Translations under genes and position numbers: made by a program
IMG/VR virus record: IMGVR_UViG_3300042342_001499
DNA length: 64,000 nucleotides
Reading direction: 5' to 3' (one strand)
DNA from: an uncultured virus (IMG/VR IMGVR_UViG_3300042342_001499)
Taxonomy: Duplodnaviria; Heunggongvirae; Uroviricota; Caudoviricetes
Notes under the pieces: generated by a model
The model's database searches: none
Seen by the model: only the letters and a program-made list of their open reading frames with translations
Told to the model about the DNA's origin: nothing
Shown: positions 16,739-61,710 of the stretch, one piece after another
Layout: the number at the start of each line of letters is the position of its first letter
Position numbering within the stretch: the stretch's first letter is position 1

Positions 16739-16859
16739 TAGTCAGGACAGGATTCGAACCTCTACGATGATATGACACCATCTACGTTAGCAATTACACT
16801 TGCTCATCTTCGGGATGTGAACCCTTTTACGTTAGCGTCTACCATTCCGCCACCTGACT
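16739..16859 (-). ncRNA. tRNA-Leu-like RNA with expanded central insert (copy 1)
   Basis: Acceptor AGTCAGG/CCTGACT+A, D arm GCGGAATGGTAGACGC, T loop GGTTCGAATCC; 71 nt between D and T arms; no 7-nt anticodon loop. Confidence 0.75.
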
Positions 16860-31226: not shown

Positions 31227-31292
31227 ATTTAATTATTTTGTTTATATATCCAATTATATATCCAAAGTTAAGGTTATTTCTAGTAGATAAAA

Positions 31293-35986: not shown

Positions 35987-36259
35987 AATTTGTTTTTTTA
36001 AGTTTTTGTTTAATTGATTAACATTACAAATATATGGAATCTTCTACTTTATAAAAAATGATTCTTGGAATTTCTTGGAAATTTCTAAAAAAAGATTTAG
36101 GGGATTCTCTGAGGCACCTACACGATTCTTGCTTGCTGGGGTTCCTCAGGTGAGACGCACGGGCTCGGCGCGGAATCCGATCCGAATCTTTTTAAATAAA
36201 AAAAGACTCCGAAGAGTCTTTCCTTTTACATCTGATAAGTGTTAATCAATCAAAAGTGT

Positions 36260-37216: not shown

Positions 37217-37501
37217 TTTGTTTATTTATTTATTGTATATATCAAATAATGATTAATTATCCTGGGGCACCTCAGATTGCTTATGTGTTTTCCTTACTCA
37301 AATATGACAATTTTTTTGGGAAACCCACTATAATATAGCATCTTTTTTTTAAACCATAATAGTATCCAGATTCCCTGGGGCACCTCAGAGTCTGGATGTT
37401 GTTTGGTTCTAAAACCTAAAATGTTTCCTTAGCCCACAAAAAAAGACCCAAGAGGGTCTTTTTATTTTTATAGTTAAAAGATTAATTAAAATATTATTTT
37501 T

Positions 37502-37990
37502 CTATATTTGTCTTAACCAATTAAAACATGGTTGATTAGTCTTAGTTCCGTTAAAAATAATAGCATCATTTGTTATTTCAATTTCTTTTTTTATAACCAT
37601 CAATCCATTAAAATCTTCAAAATTTGCTTTTAATAGTTCGGAGGAAAATTCTTTTGATTTATTAGCAGAAAAAAATAAAGTTTTATCTTTCTCCTGAAAA
37701 ATTGTCATTGGTATTTCACATCCAAGTTTTCCTAAATTTTCTTCCCTCCAGGGGAATGAGTCATTAATAATTTCCAATGTTTCGATATCTTCTGTCATTT
37801 CTCCTGTTGGTTTAGAATAACTAAACTTACGGGGAGAAGTTATAAATTTTTCAATAAAAGAATATGAATTTTCTTTTTCTAAAGGCTTCTGTGATATTAT
37901 TAAAAATTTACGAACATCATTTTTTTCATTTCGATTCCAATCTGTGATTGTTTCTAATTTAACTACAGTACAGAAAATATTGTCTTCCAT
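37502..37990 (-). CDS. Hypothetical protein
   Basis: Own promoter, leader and terminator. Confidence 0.6.
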   Translation of the reverse strand: MEDNIFCTVVKLETITDWNRNEKNDVRKFLIISQKPLEKENSYSFIEKFITSPRKFSYSKPTGEMTEDIETLEIINDSFPWREENLGKLGCEIPMTIFQEKDKTLFFSANKSKEFSSELLKANFEDFNGLMVIKKEIEITNDAIIFNGTKTNQPCFNWLRQI

Positions 37991-38173
37991 TTTTATAAAT
38001 TTTAGTTTAATTGATTAACATAGCAAATATATTGATTTTTCTACAAAGTAAAAAATGATTCTAAAGTTCCTGGGGCACCTCAAGAATTCTCCCATGGTTA
38101 CGTGGGAAATTACTTACCCCACAAAAAAAAGACTCCGAAGAGTCTTTCCTTTTACATTTGACATGTGTGTTAA

Positions 38174-38383
38174 TCAATCAAAAGTGTCTTCATTATCTTC
38201 ATTTAGATCTACGTCCCAATCTCCATCTCTATCTCTAAAAGCTACACCTCCGTGAATGTTTGGACCCACTTCGCCTATCCAGTCTTGTATACTCAATCGA
38301 TCCTCTGGATGGGCTTTAGTATTCCAATTGGCTAGGTCTTGTCTCACTAGACTCCACCATTCTTGTTTAGTAGTTGCTATCAT
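38174..38383 (-). CDS. Hypothetical protein
   Basis: ATGA-coupled to 38380-38598. Confidence 0.55.
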   Translation of the reverse strand: MIATTKQEWWSLVRQDLANWNTKAHPEDRLSIQDWIGEVGPNIHGGVAFRDRDGDWDVDLNEDNEDTFD

Positions 38384-43833: not shown

Positions 43834-44028
43834 ATCATTTTATTTAATTGGTTTACTAAACAAATATATAGAATTTTCTACTTAATTAAAAATGATTCAT
43901 AAAAATTATTAAACATTTCCGGATACTTAACACGGGGGAGCCTCAGGAATTCTTCCCACAGATACGTGAAAAAACCTTAGCCCACAAAAAAAGACCCCGA
44001 AGGGCCTTTTCCGATAACCAATCAAAAA

Positions 44029-44448: not shown

Positions 44449-44585
44449 AAGTTAATTATTTAATTGGTTTACTTAGCTAATATAGAAATTTCTAATTGAT
44501 ATAAAAAATGATTCTAGGAAATTATAGAAAAAAATTAAGATGATAAAAAAAGCCCCGAAGGGCTTTTCTTGCTAACCAACCAAAC

Positions 44586-44920: not shown

Positions 44921-45050
44921 TAGTCAGGACAGGATTCGAACCTGTATAATAACTTATGAGCAGGACTTTCACCGGGTTTTTCAAGGTTACTCCGCGTTAT
45001 CTTTACTATTAACCTTTATTCATAGCGTCTACCAATTCCGCCACCTGACT
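44921..45050 (-). ncRNA. tRNA-Leu-like RNA with expanded central insert (copy 2)
   Basis: Acceptor AGTCAGG/CCTGACT+A, D arm GCGGAATTGGTAGACGC, perfect T arm ACAGG-TTCGAAT-CCTGT; 79-nt centre closed by TATGA/TCATA. Confidence 0.78.
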
Positions 45051-49177: not shown

Positions 49178-50671
49178 TTATTGAAATTCTGCTCGAACAA
49201 CTTGATTGATAATTGACGATACCTCTTTCGGTAAAAGCTTCAAATCGTTAACCACTTTCGAATACGTGTAAAGCTCTTTGACGTGGTCTGCTTGAATACC
49301 AATTCCGACCGTGACAAATTCGTCTCTTCTTGCTCGTTCAAGGATTCGTTTAAGTTCTTCGTTATGCTCTTGACCTCCATAATTGTTTCCTGAAGGTTCA
49401 CCGTCGGATAGAGAGATGAAGATTATTCTGTCGTCATTAGTCTCTCGTACCTTCTTGTGAATAGCTTCGATAACTGGTCCGTCGTAATTCTGACACCAAT
49501 GTACGTTATGGTAAAATTTGATATTCTTTTCGTAATCGGTGTCGTACGGAGAATAGAAAGTGAAAATCTCAGGAGTGTAATCTCCGCTATGTCCGTAGAT
49601 GTATAATTTATCCGGAGGTAGAATTTGACTCATTGCGAGATAAAGCGTATTCATAATATGACGTTGAGACTGAACACGATTTCCGTGTCCCATGCTACCT
49701 GACATATCGGCTAATATACATACGGAGAAAGGCTTCGTATCTTGTTCCTCTACCCTCTGTTTGTATATCGATAGATTTCCTGCAGGGACCTCGGCTATTT
49801 TAGATGTGTCAAGTTTTCCGAGTTTAAGGTTCTTAACCTCATCGCTCTTAGGATCGAAATTGATATCCAATAGTTTGATTAAAAGTTCCGAATCTCTCTT
49901 CTCCTCCGCGTTGAATTGATAGCTAGCTCCTGAGTCTTTTTTATCGAAGGCAGTGAATTTAGGCTTTTCGGAGAATGCAGTTAAACTTCTCTCGGCTACA
50001 CTCCATGGCTTACTCTCGTTAATCTCCCCCATTAAACCTTGTATCGACTTACCGCTTTTTCCTTTAGGAGCTTCTTTACCTTCGGCCGGACTTCCACTTT
50101 CGCTTTCTTTCTCGTCTTCGCCATCACCTTCACCATCTCCTTGACCTTCACCATCACCTTCGCCTTCTTCTTCTTTCTCTCCCTGTGGTTGACCTTCGCC
50201 TTCTCCCTCACCTTCTTTCTTTCCTTTGCCTTCCTCTGGCTTAGGTTCTTGAATTTCCATTTCGATTGTACTTGATAAGATCGAATCCTTATAGTGTTCG
50301 AACATAGGCGCCATCTCAGGATAGGATGAGCAAATCGTACTTAAGATAGCTAGGTTATTCAAAGACACTACCGAATACTTCTTAACGGTCGTTCCGAAGA
50401 AAGAAGGTCTTTCGATAACCTTTGAAGTGAATTTGTCAATTAGACCTTTCTCTTTCGCCTTAAGAATGTAAAGCTTAATAAGCTTCTCCGCTTGCCATGT
50501 TCCTAATTCCCTAGCTGCTTCTCCGCTTGCTTTAATATCCAAATCGAAGTCGATTTTAATATACGGATAATCATTAAGAACTCGAGTAAATCCACCGAAG
50601 TGAGAATTTTCCCATCCTGAAGTTGATTTGTAACCTCCGCCCCAGCCACCCCATTGTTTGTATCCTGCCAT
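49178..50671 (-). CDS. VWA-domain protein (CobT/NorD-like partner of MoxR ATPase)
   Basis: Acidic G/E linker, GKLD, MIDAS DMSGSM, SDGEP, VGIGI. Confidence 0.85.
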   Translation of the reverse strand: MAGYKQWGGWGGGYKSTSGWENSHFGGFTRVLNDYPYIKIDFDLDIKASGEAARELGTWQAEKLIKLYILKAKEKGLIDKFTSKVIERPSFFGTTVKKYSVVSLNNLAILSTICSSYPEMAPMFEHYKDSILSSTIEMEIQEPKPEEGKGKKEGEGEGEGQPQGEKEEEGEGDGEGQGDGEGDGEDEKESESGSPAEGKEAPKGKSGKSIQGLMGEINESKPWSVAERSLTAFSEKPKFTAFDKKDSGASYQFNAEEKRDSELLIKLLDINFDPKSDEVKNLKLGKLDTSKIAEVPAGNLSIYKQRVEEQDTKPFSVCILADMSGSMGHGNRVQSQRHIMNTLYLAMSQILPPDKLYIYGHSGDYTPEIFTFYSPYDTDYEKNIKFYHNVHWCQNYDGPVIEAIHKKVRETNDDRIIFISLSDGEPSGNNYGGQEHNEELKRILERARRDEFVTVGIGIQADHVKELYTYSKVVNDLKLLPKEVSSIINQVVRAEFQ

Positions 50672-52624: not shown

Positions 52625-52829
52625 ATAGAGTTAATTGGTTAAGACAAATATATGGATTTTTCTACATTATAAAAAATGATTTCCAAAAAAATCTAGTCCG
52701 CATTTTTCACCGCAGTGCGCCTGAGGAGCCCCAGGGAATTTAGGATGGCCTAAAAAGTTTGTGGCAAAAGAAAGGGCCCAGATTTCTCTGAGCCCCGCGT
52801 TTAAACCAACTAAACACTAAACGTCTTTC

Positions 52830-55802: not shown

Positions 55803-56004
55803 AATGCTCTGTTTAATTGGTTATATCAAATATATAGAATATTCCACAAAAATAAAAATGATTTCCAAGAAAGTTTTAAACTGAAGGTTTCTAGGATCCC
55901 TATGAATCCCTGGGGTTCCTCAGGAAGTTTACTGAAGTGCTGAAAAAAAGCCCAACAAAAAAGCCCGAGTATAAACTCAGGCTTTTTTTATATAGTGGAA
56001 GTTG

Positions 56005-59411: not shown

Positions 59412-59474
59412 ATTCCTTTGTTTAATTGGTTAAGACAAATATATAGAATTTTCTACAAAGAAAAAAATGATTCC

Positions 59475-60302: not shown

Positions 60303-60362
60303 ATTCCTTTGTTTAATTGGTTAACTCAAATATATGGAATTTTCTACAAAGAAAAAAATGAT

Positions 60363-60887
60363 TTATGACATTTTTGTATCATAACGATTAATCAATTTCA
60401 GAATCGTCTCCTGGTGTTTGTACTCGTACACACTCATAAGGGCTAACCAATAGATATGTTCCACCTTGCCTAATACGATAACATCAGGTGTAGCGAAAGG
60501 TGTTCGATCTGCTGCCACTTGTTGTAGGCTTCGTAATTGACCGATACCAACTTGAAGTTTCATATGACCTTCGGGATCCACACCGTCTAAAATACGATCC
60601 AAAGCAATTCCTGTTTTTGATTCGACCTCTTCAACATCCACTCCGAAGAATTCGCCAGATCCTAATTGACCTCCTAAATCCTGATACATCTTATTGTGAA
60701 TCCGAGACATGTCCCCATACACATTCTGAACATCGTTCCAGAATAAATCGAACCTCTTCTCACTGCGGTCTAACATATCACCTGCACCATCGAGTATACG
60801 TGCCATACGCTTACTCTTATCATTACCACGTGCAAGGTCATCAACGATACCTCTTAAAGACGCAATTAAAATAGTTTTTGATTCCAT
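60363..60887 (-). CDS. Hypothetical protein
   Basis: Own promoter; stop overlaps the next promoter motif. Confidence 0.6.
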   Translation of the reverse strand: MESKTILIASLRGIVDDLARGNDKSKRMARILDGAGDMLDRSEKRFDLFWNDVQNVYGDMSRIHNKMYQDLGGQLGSGEFFGVDVEEVESKTGIALDRILDGVDPEGHMKLQVGIGQLRSLQQVAADRTPFATPDVIVLGKVEHIYWLALMSVYEYKHQETILKLINRYDTKMS

Positions 60888-61137
60888 AGTTTCCCCTTTT
60901 GTTTAAACAAATATAAGAGATTATTCTAAATAAAAAAAATGATTCATAGAAATTTCTATAAATTTATCGCGGAATCCGAGCGGCTCGCACTACGGAATCC
61001 GACTGCCGGATTACACCCTGGGGTTCCCCAAGAATTCTGCGGATGCAACGCAGAGAAAATCCGGATGTGGCTGCGGATTACCCACGGGGGTTCCTCAGTC
61101 GTCATCGATTCGGTTAGAAATTTCTAAATAAACCCCC

Positions 61138-61222
61138 ACAAAAAAACCGAGACGAATCTCGGTTTTTACTAACCAATATAAACCTAAACAATATATAAGC
61201 GAAACCTGAGTGTGATTTCACA
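61138..61222 (-). ncRNA. Candidate small regulatory RNA (about 85 nt)
   Basis: TATATTTG box at 61226-61233, no ORF, U-rich segment UUGUUUAGGUUUAUAUUGGUUAGU, terminator at 61140-61167. Confidence 0.55.
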
Positions 61223-61278
61223 TTGCAAATATAACACATTCTTTGCGGATAAAAAAATTTATCTCGGATAAATACAGT

Positions 61279-61710
61279 ATGCGGACAATTAAACTATACG
61301 AAAATTTCGGACAAGATCGCCTCGCCTTCTCTAGCAAGGTGGGTAGGGAAGACACACACCTCACTCTCTATGACGAACCAATGGATATGAGAAATGCATT
61401 GATCAATGGCGGAGTGGTTAATTGGGATATTGCTTTCTCCAAGAAATCATGGGGAATCGCACTAGGTGACACACCCACCACTATCACATCTATGAGATTT
61501 GATTACGAAGTGGAAGACGAAGACAATGAGGACGGAGATTACGTAGAGAAAGAGTGGGAAATCCCAGAAGGTGTCTTCTCTCCTGAGCAATTCACCACAG
61601 AGCTTAACAAGTTCCCTCTTTACCTTGAAGCTGTTGATATCAATATGAGACACACAATGGATCCTAAGTTCTGGAAGATCACTCTCTATTTAGGCGGAGA
61701 CCAGCATTAA
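61279..61710 (+). CDS. Putative internal virion protein
   Basis: Start at MRTIKLYENF right after GGATAAATA. Confidence 0.6.
   Translation: MRTIKLYENFGQDRLAFSSKVGREDTHLTLYDEPMDMRNALINGGVVNWDIAFSKKSWGIALGDTPTTITSMRFDYEVEDEDNEDGDYVEKEWEIPEGVFSPEQFTTELNKFPLYLEAVDINMRHTMDPKFWKITLYLGGDQH

Follow-up and report, generated by a model that had tools for sequence, protein, structure and literature searches.

A candidate anti-leader RNA and related boxes before terminators in the early region of a giant phage with Bacteroidota-type promoters

A unit without a gene in the early region of an uncultured giant phage is very probably a real, conserved, strand-specific and structured non-coding RNA (ncRNA) gene of the minus strand. 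Its unpaired core is complementary to a leader shared by about 26 early transcription units, and our results suggest, tentatively, that the RNA is an anti-leader sRNA that acts in trans as part of a broader network of leaders and anti-leaders. More striking is that such anti-leader boxes recur upstream of terminators in three genomes of large phages. At the level of sequence, these features make it probable that RNA–RNA pairing serves the phage to tune its early genes.

The phage, its early cassettes and their shared leader

The window, i.e., the whole stretch of 64,000 nucleotides that was analyzed, comes from a giant or jumbo phage of lake water. Its G + C content was 34%, and nearly all of its genes were on the minus strand. 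Positions 1–31234 matched, with 100% identity, the end of a virus record of 154 kb (G001); this record represents the same phage, ends at window position 31234 and does not include the ncRNA locus. Because of this match, the phage is large, and 187 kb of it were readable in all. The DNA runs with at least half of the sampled words numbered 15 and were from lakes or freshwater, and the RNA-library runs contained at most 0.36 of the sampled words. Among the contigs of four RNA-library runs, those of X16 reached 28 of 30 bins, with the bins over the locus among them, and one from X19 spanned 61175–61338; these contigs carry no information on strand, RNA ends or level and may be derived from DNA.

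The promoters of the window are of the Bacteroidota type, for which the consensus of the -7 box is TAnnTTTG (PMC6847099). From about 34.3 to 62.9 kb, the minus strand is organized as successive small cassettes. Their promoter module is GAATCATTTTTTT-N5-TAGAAnnTTC-TATATTTG (or TAYATTAG-CTAAGTA), which is followed by the leader (T)AACCAATTAAA(C/A/T) or its variant AATCAATTAAAC and by an ATG about 20 nt past the start of the leader motif. Many cassettes close with the same family of terminators, consisting of a hairpin (often with a TTCG loop), T7 and then GTGGGCTAAGG. Among the 28 minus-strand TAnnTTTG boxes with a nearby T run, 25 had a spacing of 16–18 nt. A gene lies behind 24 of these 25 boxes, and the box of the candidate unit is the sole exception.

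An earlier note on this DNA had claimed that more than 20 early genes share a leader. Consistent with this claim, AAYCAATTAAA was found in 22 copies on the minus strand of the window and in one copy on the plus strand, and a looser pattern identified 26 promoter-linked copies between 34297 and 62883. The leader motif was also present at the example positions given in that note, with coordinates that were 6–7 nt off the motif starts. Promoter-linked copies were absent from the other ~155 kb of the phage that was readable.

In the numbering used for Flavobacterium johnsoniae, the G of the -7 box is at -5 (PMC6847099). By this numbering, 13 of the 26 modules have the beginning of the leader motif at +1, three have it at +3 and 10 at +4. 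Because the motif is thus placed at +1 to +4, the leader would form the very 5′ end of the early mRNAs. It spans ~20 to 8 nt upstream of the AUG, with a median motif start of 20 nt before the AUG. In predictions it is left open, its median unpaired probability being 0.865. Moreover, nine modules with an identical promoter have no leader motif, so the motif is a separate element outside the core promoter. Searching a 596 Gb collection with the promoter-plus-leader pattern yielded 61 stretches, of which ~35 were from Bacteroidota by hand count, mostly with one stretch per genome. The possibility that the motif is a general leader of the hosts was rejected, given that most genomes had at most one copy and that the contigs with 2–4 copies resembled mis-binned phage.

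The non-coding RNA unit and its relatives

The coordinates of the unit, of three example target leaders and of the sister boxes are listed in Table 1. The earlier note had described a promoter box that drives about 85 nt without an open reading frame (ORF) into a terminator. All of these features were found at that place on the minus strand, and the predicted RNA is ~81 nt long, from ~61221 to ~61141. Its unpaired stretch of 31 nt comprises 61198–61168. The stem-loop of the terminator comprises 61162–61147 and its U7 61146–61140. Similar to others of its family, the terminator consists of a hairpin, T7 and GTGGG, and A and T runs flank it on both sides. No ORF of at least 25 amino acid residues starts inside the unit. 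The only one nearby on the minus strand (61239–61114, 41 residues) begins upstream of the -7 box, and the coding potential of the unit in related loci is limited to ATG-TGA or GTG-TGA. The unit's own 5′ end starts with GUGAAAUC and differs from the leader.

Table 1. Positions of the parts of the unit, example target leaders and sister boxes in the window
Feature	Position	Strand	Remark
T7 run, upstream promoter element	61251..61257	-	Ends 17 nt before the -7 box; in 15/15 related loci
-7 box TATATTTG, TAnnTTTG type	61226..61233	-	Invariant in 11/11 aligned sequences; also in the G002 and L142 orthologs
Predicted +1 (G 61221) and 5′ hairpin GUGAAAUC-ACACUCA-GGUUUCGC	61199..61221	-	RNAalifold consensus; start site predicted from sequence
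Variable linker	61189..61198	-	At least five sequence variants plus indels in 11 sequences
Unpaired core UUUAGGUUUAUAUUGGUUAG	61169..61188	-	20/20 nt invariant in 11 sequences; unpaired in MFE and consensus folds
Candidate anti-leader box GUUUAUAUUGGUUA	61183-61170	-	Predicted duplex with leader -10.4 to -12.2 kcal/mol
UGUUUAGGUUUAUAUUGGUUAGU before the terminator hairpin	61193-61171	-	Read from sequence
Intrinsic terminator: A tract, CCGAGA-UUCG-UCUCGG, U7	61140..61167	-	Terminator family of the phage
Example target leader AACCAAUUAAAC of gene 60302-59475	60311..60322	-	-15.3 kcal/mol with the core; motif at predicted +1
Example target leader of gene 59411-58536	59420..59431	-	-15.3 kcal/mol with the core
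Example target leader, best predicted duplex	55811..55822	-	-16.4 kcal/mol
Sister box GUUUAGUUGGUUU, 3′ UTR of gene 53306-52830	52803..52815	-	-12.6 kcal/mol; 8 nt before the terminator
Sister box GUUUGGUUGGUUA, directly after the stop of gene 44834-44586	44573..44585	-	-14.0 kcal/mol; both departures A to G
Sister box UUUUGAUUGGUUA, 3′ UTR of gene 44448-44029	44015..44027	-	-12.1 kcal/mol
Sister box UUUUGAUUGAUUA, matching variant leader UAAUCAAU	38171..38183	-	-10.3 kcal/mol (variant leader); nearly duplicates the box at 36255
Sister box UUUUGAUUGAUUA	36243..36255	-	-10.3 kcal/mol; read-through pairing predicted with the variant leader at 36019
Seventh box UUUUAAUUGGUUA	37514..37526	-	~55 nt upstream of terminator 37458; a complete plus-strand box-plus-leader copy in reverse

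The unit lies in a complex intergenic junction that contains iteron-like CGGAATCCG repeats, palindromes and a GC-rich element. Its flanking genes (60363–60887 and 61279–61710) were assigned no function by PHROGs or Pfam. No Rfam family was matched at the locus. The best Rfam match, rseX (RF01401), scored 29.4 bits vs. a threshold of 50 and was driven by the terminator, and C4 (RF01695) was missing from the matches up to E = 10 on 60880–61290. The single-sequence fold of the unit had a z-score of -1.72, and the plus-strand fold including the terminator had a z-score of -5.08. Two readings of the plus strand were rejected. A plus-strand leader copy that serves gene 61279 has no TAnnTTTG box upstream. 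A plus-strand RNA that runs from the GC-rich element to the terminator would carry the box-like sequence TATAAATTTA (~60957), which is lost in distant relatives. The substitutions in the hairpins, moreover, favor the minus strand over the plus-strand readings.

Relatives of the locus were identified through the divergent neighbor protein, which has 143 residues and no family match. Fifteen metagenome loci, with identities of 62–100%, were found, and the unit including its promoter was present in all of them. In the 11 distinct sequences that were aligned, the box, the 3′ arm of the hairpin, the 20-nt block and most of the terminator were invariant, and the linker and the sequence after the terminator varied. 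In the most distant metagenome loci, the unit was 80–86% identical, whereas the nucleotide identity of the neighboring gene was 71–73%. The substitutions in the stems were U-G to C-G, C-G to U-G, A-U to G-U and A-U to U-A; in the terminator stem, A-U to G-U occurred in four sequences and A-U to U-A in two. Canonical pairs accounted for 205 of 209 cells when read as minus-strand RNA vs. 182 of 209 on the plus strand. Covariation was thin among the 10 close sequences, with one double-changed pair, a value that 7 of 500 shuffles equaled or exceeded. Neither DNA nor protein relatives of the locus were found in the phage collection, and IMG/VR contained no match to the neighboring protein or to a 23-nt exact pattern.

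BLAST of the unit against five other phage genomes (G002–G006) returned chance pieces only, and an ortholog in G002 emerged later from a covariance model that was built from the close sequences and used to search for distant orthologs. The model matched G002 with 46 bits and a further locus, L142, with 44.9 bits. In both, the synteny included the divergent neighbor (41–43% amino acid identity), the GC-rich element and the next promoter downstream. After these orthologs were added, 9 of 19 pairs were double-changed, five of eight in the 5′ hairpin and four of 11 in the terminator, and none of 500 shuffles reached this number, although the alignment was fitted to the model and so favors the structure.

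In the two distant orthologs, the promoter and both hairpins are preserved, and so are the ACUCA loop and UAUUUAG.UUU. Their cores, AUUUAGAUUUUAAUUGUCAA in G002 and AUUUAGAUUUUGAUUGUUAAG in L142, have lost UUGGUUA and one G of the GG, and with the unchanged leader these cores reach only -5 to -7 kcal/mol, which is within background. The leader showed no change in any of the relatives that were read. Each lineage departs from full pairing in its own way, either through a bulge, on the side of the RNA or of the leader, or through a mismatch. Because UUGGUUA was lost, the deepest conservation is that of the hairpins, the ACUCA loop and UAUUUAG.UUU rather than that of the strongest part of the seed.

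Leader complementarity and boxes before terminators

The earlier note had proposed that the sequence before the terminator hairpin is antisense to the leader, and the predicted duplex agrees with this. GUUUA-U-AUUGGUUA can form 12–13 bp with AACCAAUUAAAC, a single U being bulged out, and the energy is -10.4 kcal/mol, falling to -12.2 kcal/mol when the preceding UU is included. When the 26 leaders were paired with the unpaired region of the RNA, the median energy was -11.85 kcal/mol, and 22 were at or below -10 kcal/mol. Comparison with shuffled controls, as that note had suggested, gave a modest result in favor of the pairing: when the dinucleotides of the unpaired region were shuffled 500 times, 2.2% of the shuffles equaled the observed median, and the median of the shuffles was -7.95. 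Furthermore, -10 was reached by 0.8% of 4308 minus-strand windows of 45 nt. AUUGGUUA alone is weak evidence, with seven minus-strand copies in the window. Scanning the whole phage with the 20-mer identified 106 sites at -13 or better, among which the leaders (-14) were not the best individual ones. A look-alike of the core at 49346 on the minus strand was rejected as a chance match that sits within a membrane-protein ORF. Because 2.2% of the shuffles match and A/U-rich RNAs pair promiscuously, support from this single locus is modest, and so is the confidence with which the core may be said to complement the shared leader beyond chance.

Similar complements of the leader were found at other terminators. 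Six of the 23 early minus-strand terminators, including that of the candidate, carry one within 45 nt before the hairpin; their stems start at 61162, 52795, 44564, 44006, 38144 and 36218, and the gap between box and stem is 7–8 nt in four of the six. G002 shares the promoter modules of the window (40 BLAST matches), and 5 of its 26 terminators reach -8 vs. 1.5% of windows. One further G002 box, at 167504, was overlooked by the hairpin scan. G003, a complete phage of 348 kb, has another upstream promoter element and the same leader. Three of its 16 terminators reach -12 vs. 0.5% of windows, and two of its 3′ UTRs hold two or three tandem boxes. In the three genomes pooled, 9 of 65 windows upstream of terminators were at or below -10 with the true leader. 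Among 300 permuted leaders, the corresponding mean was 0.36 and the maximum 5, and none reached 9.

A Hamming search, which has no wobble bias, found 13 matches within two mismatches, and 10 of them were before terminators. Within these terminator-linked boxes, 10 internal positions deviate from perfect complementarity, nine of them by a change of A to G, which keeps a G-U pair on the transcribed strand only. Between orthologs of the window and G002 with 47% amino acid identity, a 24-nt block of the 3′ UTR that contains the box of gene 53306–52830 was kept with two changes. A second gene pair keeps a box-like sequence, which overlaps the stop codon in G002, and the box was absent in two other ortholog pairs. 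The interpretation of the earlier note was supported in part: the locus is a conserved ncRNA with a leader-complementary core, whereas the seed is not a single master seed, as the box occurs in at least six other early 3′ UTRs here and in two further phages. A master off-switch would be one possible outcome of the pairing, and stabilization of the early mRNAs another.

The boxes in 3′ UTRs showed no clear preference for their own or the next leader, because each box pairs with most leaders. In predicted folds of read-through RNA, the box pairs with the next leader in four of the five 3′ UTR cases, with 7.6–11.6 expected bp. For the candidate unit, read-through pairing was predicted at 0.00 bp, and its downstream neighbor, gene 60887, carries a different leader.

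Proposed function, alternatives and known systems

Bacteroidota initiate translation without a Shine-Dalgarno sequence and need an open leader. In the proposed mechanism, the RNA polymerase of the host, which would be of the Bacteroidota type, starts the ~81-nt RNA at the early-type promoter and stops at the intrinsic terminator of the phage. The RNA would fold into a 5′ hairpin, ~31 unpaired A/U-rich bases and the terminator hairpin. Its anti-leader box, GUUUA(U)AUUGGUUA, would pair in trans with the first 12–13 bases (AACCAAUUAAAC) of ~26 early mRNAs, and the duplex, ~20 to 8 nt before the AUG, might lower 30S loading and/or alter decay that depends on the 5′ end. We infer from sequence that the unit is transcribed, where its RNA starts and stops, that pairing occurs in vivo and in which direction it acts. 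The RNA would be the free-standing member of a set, with the same box at about one quarter of the terminators of early units, and the 3′ UTR boxes might act in cis on read-through RNA or in trans as stable 3′ fragments. Because the unit's own 5′ end is no leader, the next gene lacks the leader and read-through pairing is predicted at 0.00 bp, the candidate's box must act in trans if it pairs with leaders at all. Since action in cis is precluded in that case, the trans reading is the best single explanation for the locus. Given the early-type promoter, production of the RNA would coincide with that of its targets, which fits tuning or feedback better than a delayed switch. The invariant block of 20 nt is longer than the leader complement, and therefore something else may constrain it.

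Such a constraint is central to the strongest alternative, which we regard as unlikely though still worth serious attention: the RNA is real, its main job is to bind a protein or another phage or host RNA through ACUCA and UAUUUAG.UUU, and the leader match is a by-product of descent from an anti-leader-plus-terminator module. It is favored by the distant orthologs, which keep the promoter, the hairpins, the loop and UAUUUAG.UUU and not UUGGUUA, by an invariant block that exceeds the leader complement and by the many sites that score like the leaders for the 20-mer. However, the 187 kb read yielded no recurrent target that would be better, both distant orthologs retain UUUU(A/G)AUUG, the complement of CAAUUAAAA, and the motif family is clearly used beside terminators by these phages.

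Another possibility is that the boxes act in cis only, by folding read-through RNA onto the next leader, and that the candidate is an orphan cassette that lost its ORF and its partner and has little function. The predicted folds of the 3′ UTR cases are consistent with cis action, as are a precedent in T4 (PMC3014915) and, by hand count, the presence of a box at 5 of 9 terminators with a leader within 200 nt downstream vs. 2 of 14 others. The candidate itself does not fit, given its lack of pairing with the leader region of the next gene. Moreover, an orphan would decay, yet the core is invariant in 11 sequences and synteny persists down to 41–43% identity of the neighbor, and up to three tandem boxes in one G003 3′ UTR are beyond the need of a single fold-back. 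As an account of the whole, cis action alone is rather improbable.

Still less probable is that the conserved block works as DNA within a regulatory or origin-like region between genes, serving as a protein-binding site or as a piece of a bidirectional terminator; both leaders and boxes would then be explained by a protein that recognizes AACCAAT regardless of its orientation. The complex junction with its CGGAATCCG repeats and palindromes, the A and T runs that flank the terminator and the G003 sense leaders that vary at the same positions, as AACCAACTAAA, would agree with this. However, the changes in the hairpin are compatible with G-U pairs only when the minus strand is read (205 vs. 182 of 209), and all 22 exact sense leaders in the window read AATTAAA, whereas 9 of 10 internal changes in the terminator-linked inverse copies are A to G on the transcribed strand. 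The inverse copies are also tied to the transcribed strand just before terminators, and the plus-strand copies have no plus-strand -7 box, except at 37515.

The suggestion of the earlier note that the leaders sponge a similar host sRNA, with the phage RNA as its mimic, found no direct support and is very improbable. The nearest sign of it is a single Flavobacteriaceae-type genome with a terminator-proximal UUGGUUUUAGAUUGGUCAG (38.5 bits). Yet this best match has no TAnnTTTG box or similar hairpin, and bacterial genomes carry the promoter-plus-leader pattern about once at most. The covariance model matched 0 of 3 genomes and gave two weak matches in 151 Flavobacteriaceae-type genomes (per-genome E of 4e-4 and 6e-4), a sample that may miss the host. 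A functionless chance resemblance in A/T-rich spacer, for which the unremarkable 8-mer with its seven minus-strand copies and the single-sequence z-score of only -1.72 could be cited, is scarcely credible in view of the conservation, covariation and synteny.

A trans-acting anti-leader RNA remains the reading that we tentatively prefer. In this reading, a single short RNA motif would be directed at the 5′ ends of ~26 transcription units; the motif recurs at terminators in three genomes of large phages. Should the pairing prove real, the virus would govern a whole temporal class of genes post-transcriptionally in hosts without Shine-Dalgarno-led initiation, the leader/anti-leader pair would be a simple and portable tool for Bacteroidota, and its signature would allow the early regions of uncultured phages to be annotated. 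A bolder and rather doubtful extension is a distributed circuit of freshwater jumbo phages, with a shared 12-nt 5′ tag on most early mRNAs and its complement directly before the protective terminator hairpins of about one quarter of the early units and of a gene-less unit, in a phylum whose translation initiation depends mainly on an open leader. If this were true, decay would leave nuclease-resistant 3′ ends that titrate the 5′ tags, which would amount to a protein-free timer or dosage governor of the early class.

Regulatory RNAs of phages are known mainly from a few enterobacterial phages. Our literature search, mostly at the level of abstracts, identified no phage-encoded regulatory RNA for Bacteroidota phages, nor any description, for these phages, of an RNA or a 3′ UTR motif that complements a common early leader. 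Similar to the candidate, the chromosomal sRNAs of Bacteroides are intrinsically terminated and belong to a phylum without Shine-Dalgarno-led initiation; different from the candidate, which is phage-encoded, they are encoded by the host (PMC10994844).

In T4, sequence upstream of genes e, soc, 49 and I-TevI occludes the start in read-through RNA, and only the mRNA initiated at the promoter is translated (PMC3014915). Four of the five 3′ UTR boxes of this study would fit such occlusion. Different from T4, where each gene has a private hairpin, a shared leader and a shared box are reused here, and the candidate RNA, with 0.00 bp, is excluded from the likeness.

CpxQ and SroC are sRNAs derived from 3′ UTRs, with terminator-proximal seeds, that depend on Hfq and target other genes. 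Similar to them, the seed of the candidate is just upstream of an intrinsic terminator, and stable 3′ ends could act in trans; in contrast, the targets here would be the early 5′ ends of the phage itself. Bacteroidota are not known to have Hfq. In hok mRNA (fbi-tac) and Staphylococcus aureus icaR, an element at the 3′ end pairs with the 5′ end or the initiation region of the same mRNA. Pairing of this kind is possible for 3′ UTR boxes whose mRNA starts with the leader, whereas the boxes have no preference for their own leader and the 5′ end of the candidate is no leader.

Finally, c4 of P1/P7 and the CI RNA of the satellite phage P4 (Rfam C4, RF01695) are short phage RNAs that repress their own early transcripts via repeated sites in the leader. 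By analogy, an exposed sequence of the candidate RNA would face repeated complementary sites in early leaders. The c4 and CI RNAs are cut from the operon that they control and act on two sites of that single operon, whereas the candidate has its own promoter and terminator, ~26 potential target units and a promoter of the Bacteroidota type.

Motifs and promoter classes around the early genes

The dyad-like motif YCTGAGGWRCCCCAGG was present in 14 minus-strand and five plus-strand copies, of which the minus-strand sites ranged from 33793 to 61098, within the early region. Most copies had a terminator on one side and the next early promoter on the other, and the motif is likely a protein-binding site upstream of early promoters. 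Moreover, the near-palindrome TAGAAnnTTCTA overlapped the start of the -7 box (TAnnTTTG) in most early modules and lay ~20-30 nt upstream of +1, where it may act as the operator of a dimeric regulator.

In six of the 26 modules, promoters of a second class, TAYWTTAG-CTAAGTA, stood in place of TATATTTG-tctt, while the upstream elements and the leader were unchanged from those of the other modules. This class may represent a different temporal class or be served by a different sigma factor.

Features identified in the phage and in genome G038
Feature	Position	Strand	Detail
GC-rich element	60947-61126		~155 nt; separates the sRNA terminator from the promoter of gene 60887
Dyad-like motif YCTGAGGWRCCCCAGG, examples	55923, 47083, 43946, 39500, 38083	-
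TAYWTTAG-CTAAGTA promoters, examples	52266, 51841, 44469, 40492, 36511, 34864	-
-7 box and leader (TATATTTGtcttAACCAATTAAAAc)	37503-37527	+	sole plus-strand copy in the window
Rfam tRNA match	44921-45050	-	130 nt, 38.1 bits; 62-nt insert in the anticodon-loop region
Rfam tRNA match	16739-16859	-	121 nt, 29.1 bits
UUGGUUUUAGAUUGGUCAG, core-like	L143 1501-1581 (G038)	-	intergenic, terminator-proximal; 38.5 bits

GC-rich element beside the sRNA gene

The GC-rich element has a perfect palindrome TAGAAATTTCTA on either side (60947-60958 and 61115-61126) and is adjoined by helicase- and primase-like genes. It contains several AATCCG/CGGATT repeats, whose copy number varies among relatives and thus renders the element iteron-like. 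The element could serve as an origin or as a regulator array.

Plus-strand leader copy and tRNA-like sequences

The plus-strand copy of the -7 box and leader sits within the 3' end of the minus-strand gene 37990-37502 and is followed only by ATG GTT GAT TAG. It could drive transcription of an antisense RNA. Read on the minus strand, the same stretch is a perfect anti-leader, the complement of the leader, ~55 nt before the terminator at 37458.

Rfam matched two tRNA-like sequences; ARAGORN reported no tRNA in the window. The two matches may represent phage tRNA genes that are interrupted or carry introns. In the part of the phage covered by G001, a record of the same phage that overlaps window 1-31234, several tRNA D-arm signatures (GTAGCTCAGTTGGTTAGAGC) were found at window coordinates of ~-60700 to -67600, suggesting a tRNA gene cluster. 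The D-loop of these tRNA-like sequences resembles the anti-leader core.

Anti-leader-like sequences in other genomes

The covariance-model search for host homologs of the sRNA matched UUGGUUUUAGAUUGGUCAG in the Flavobacteriaceae-type genome G038. Its resemblance to the unpaired sRNA core may be due to chance, because no TAnnTTTG box was found upstream of it. In the complete 348-kb phage G003 (L076/L077), which has the same leader, tandem anti-leader boxes were found in two 3' UTRs, at record positions 82287 and 83578. Each contains two or three boxes immediately before the terminator, such as AAUUGGUUA-AGUUGGUU-GAUUGGUUAA.
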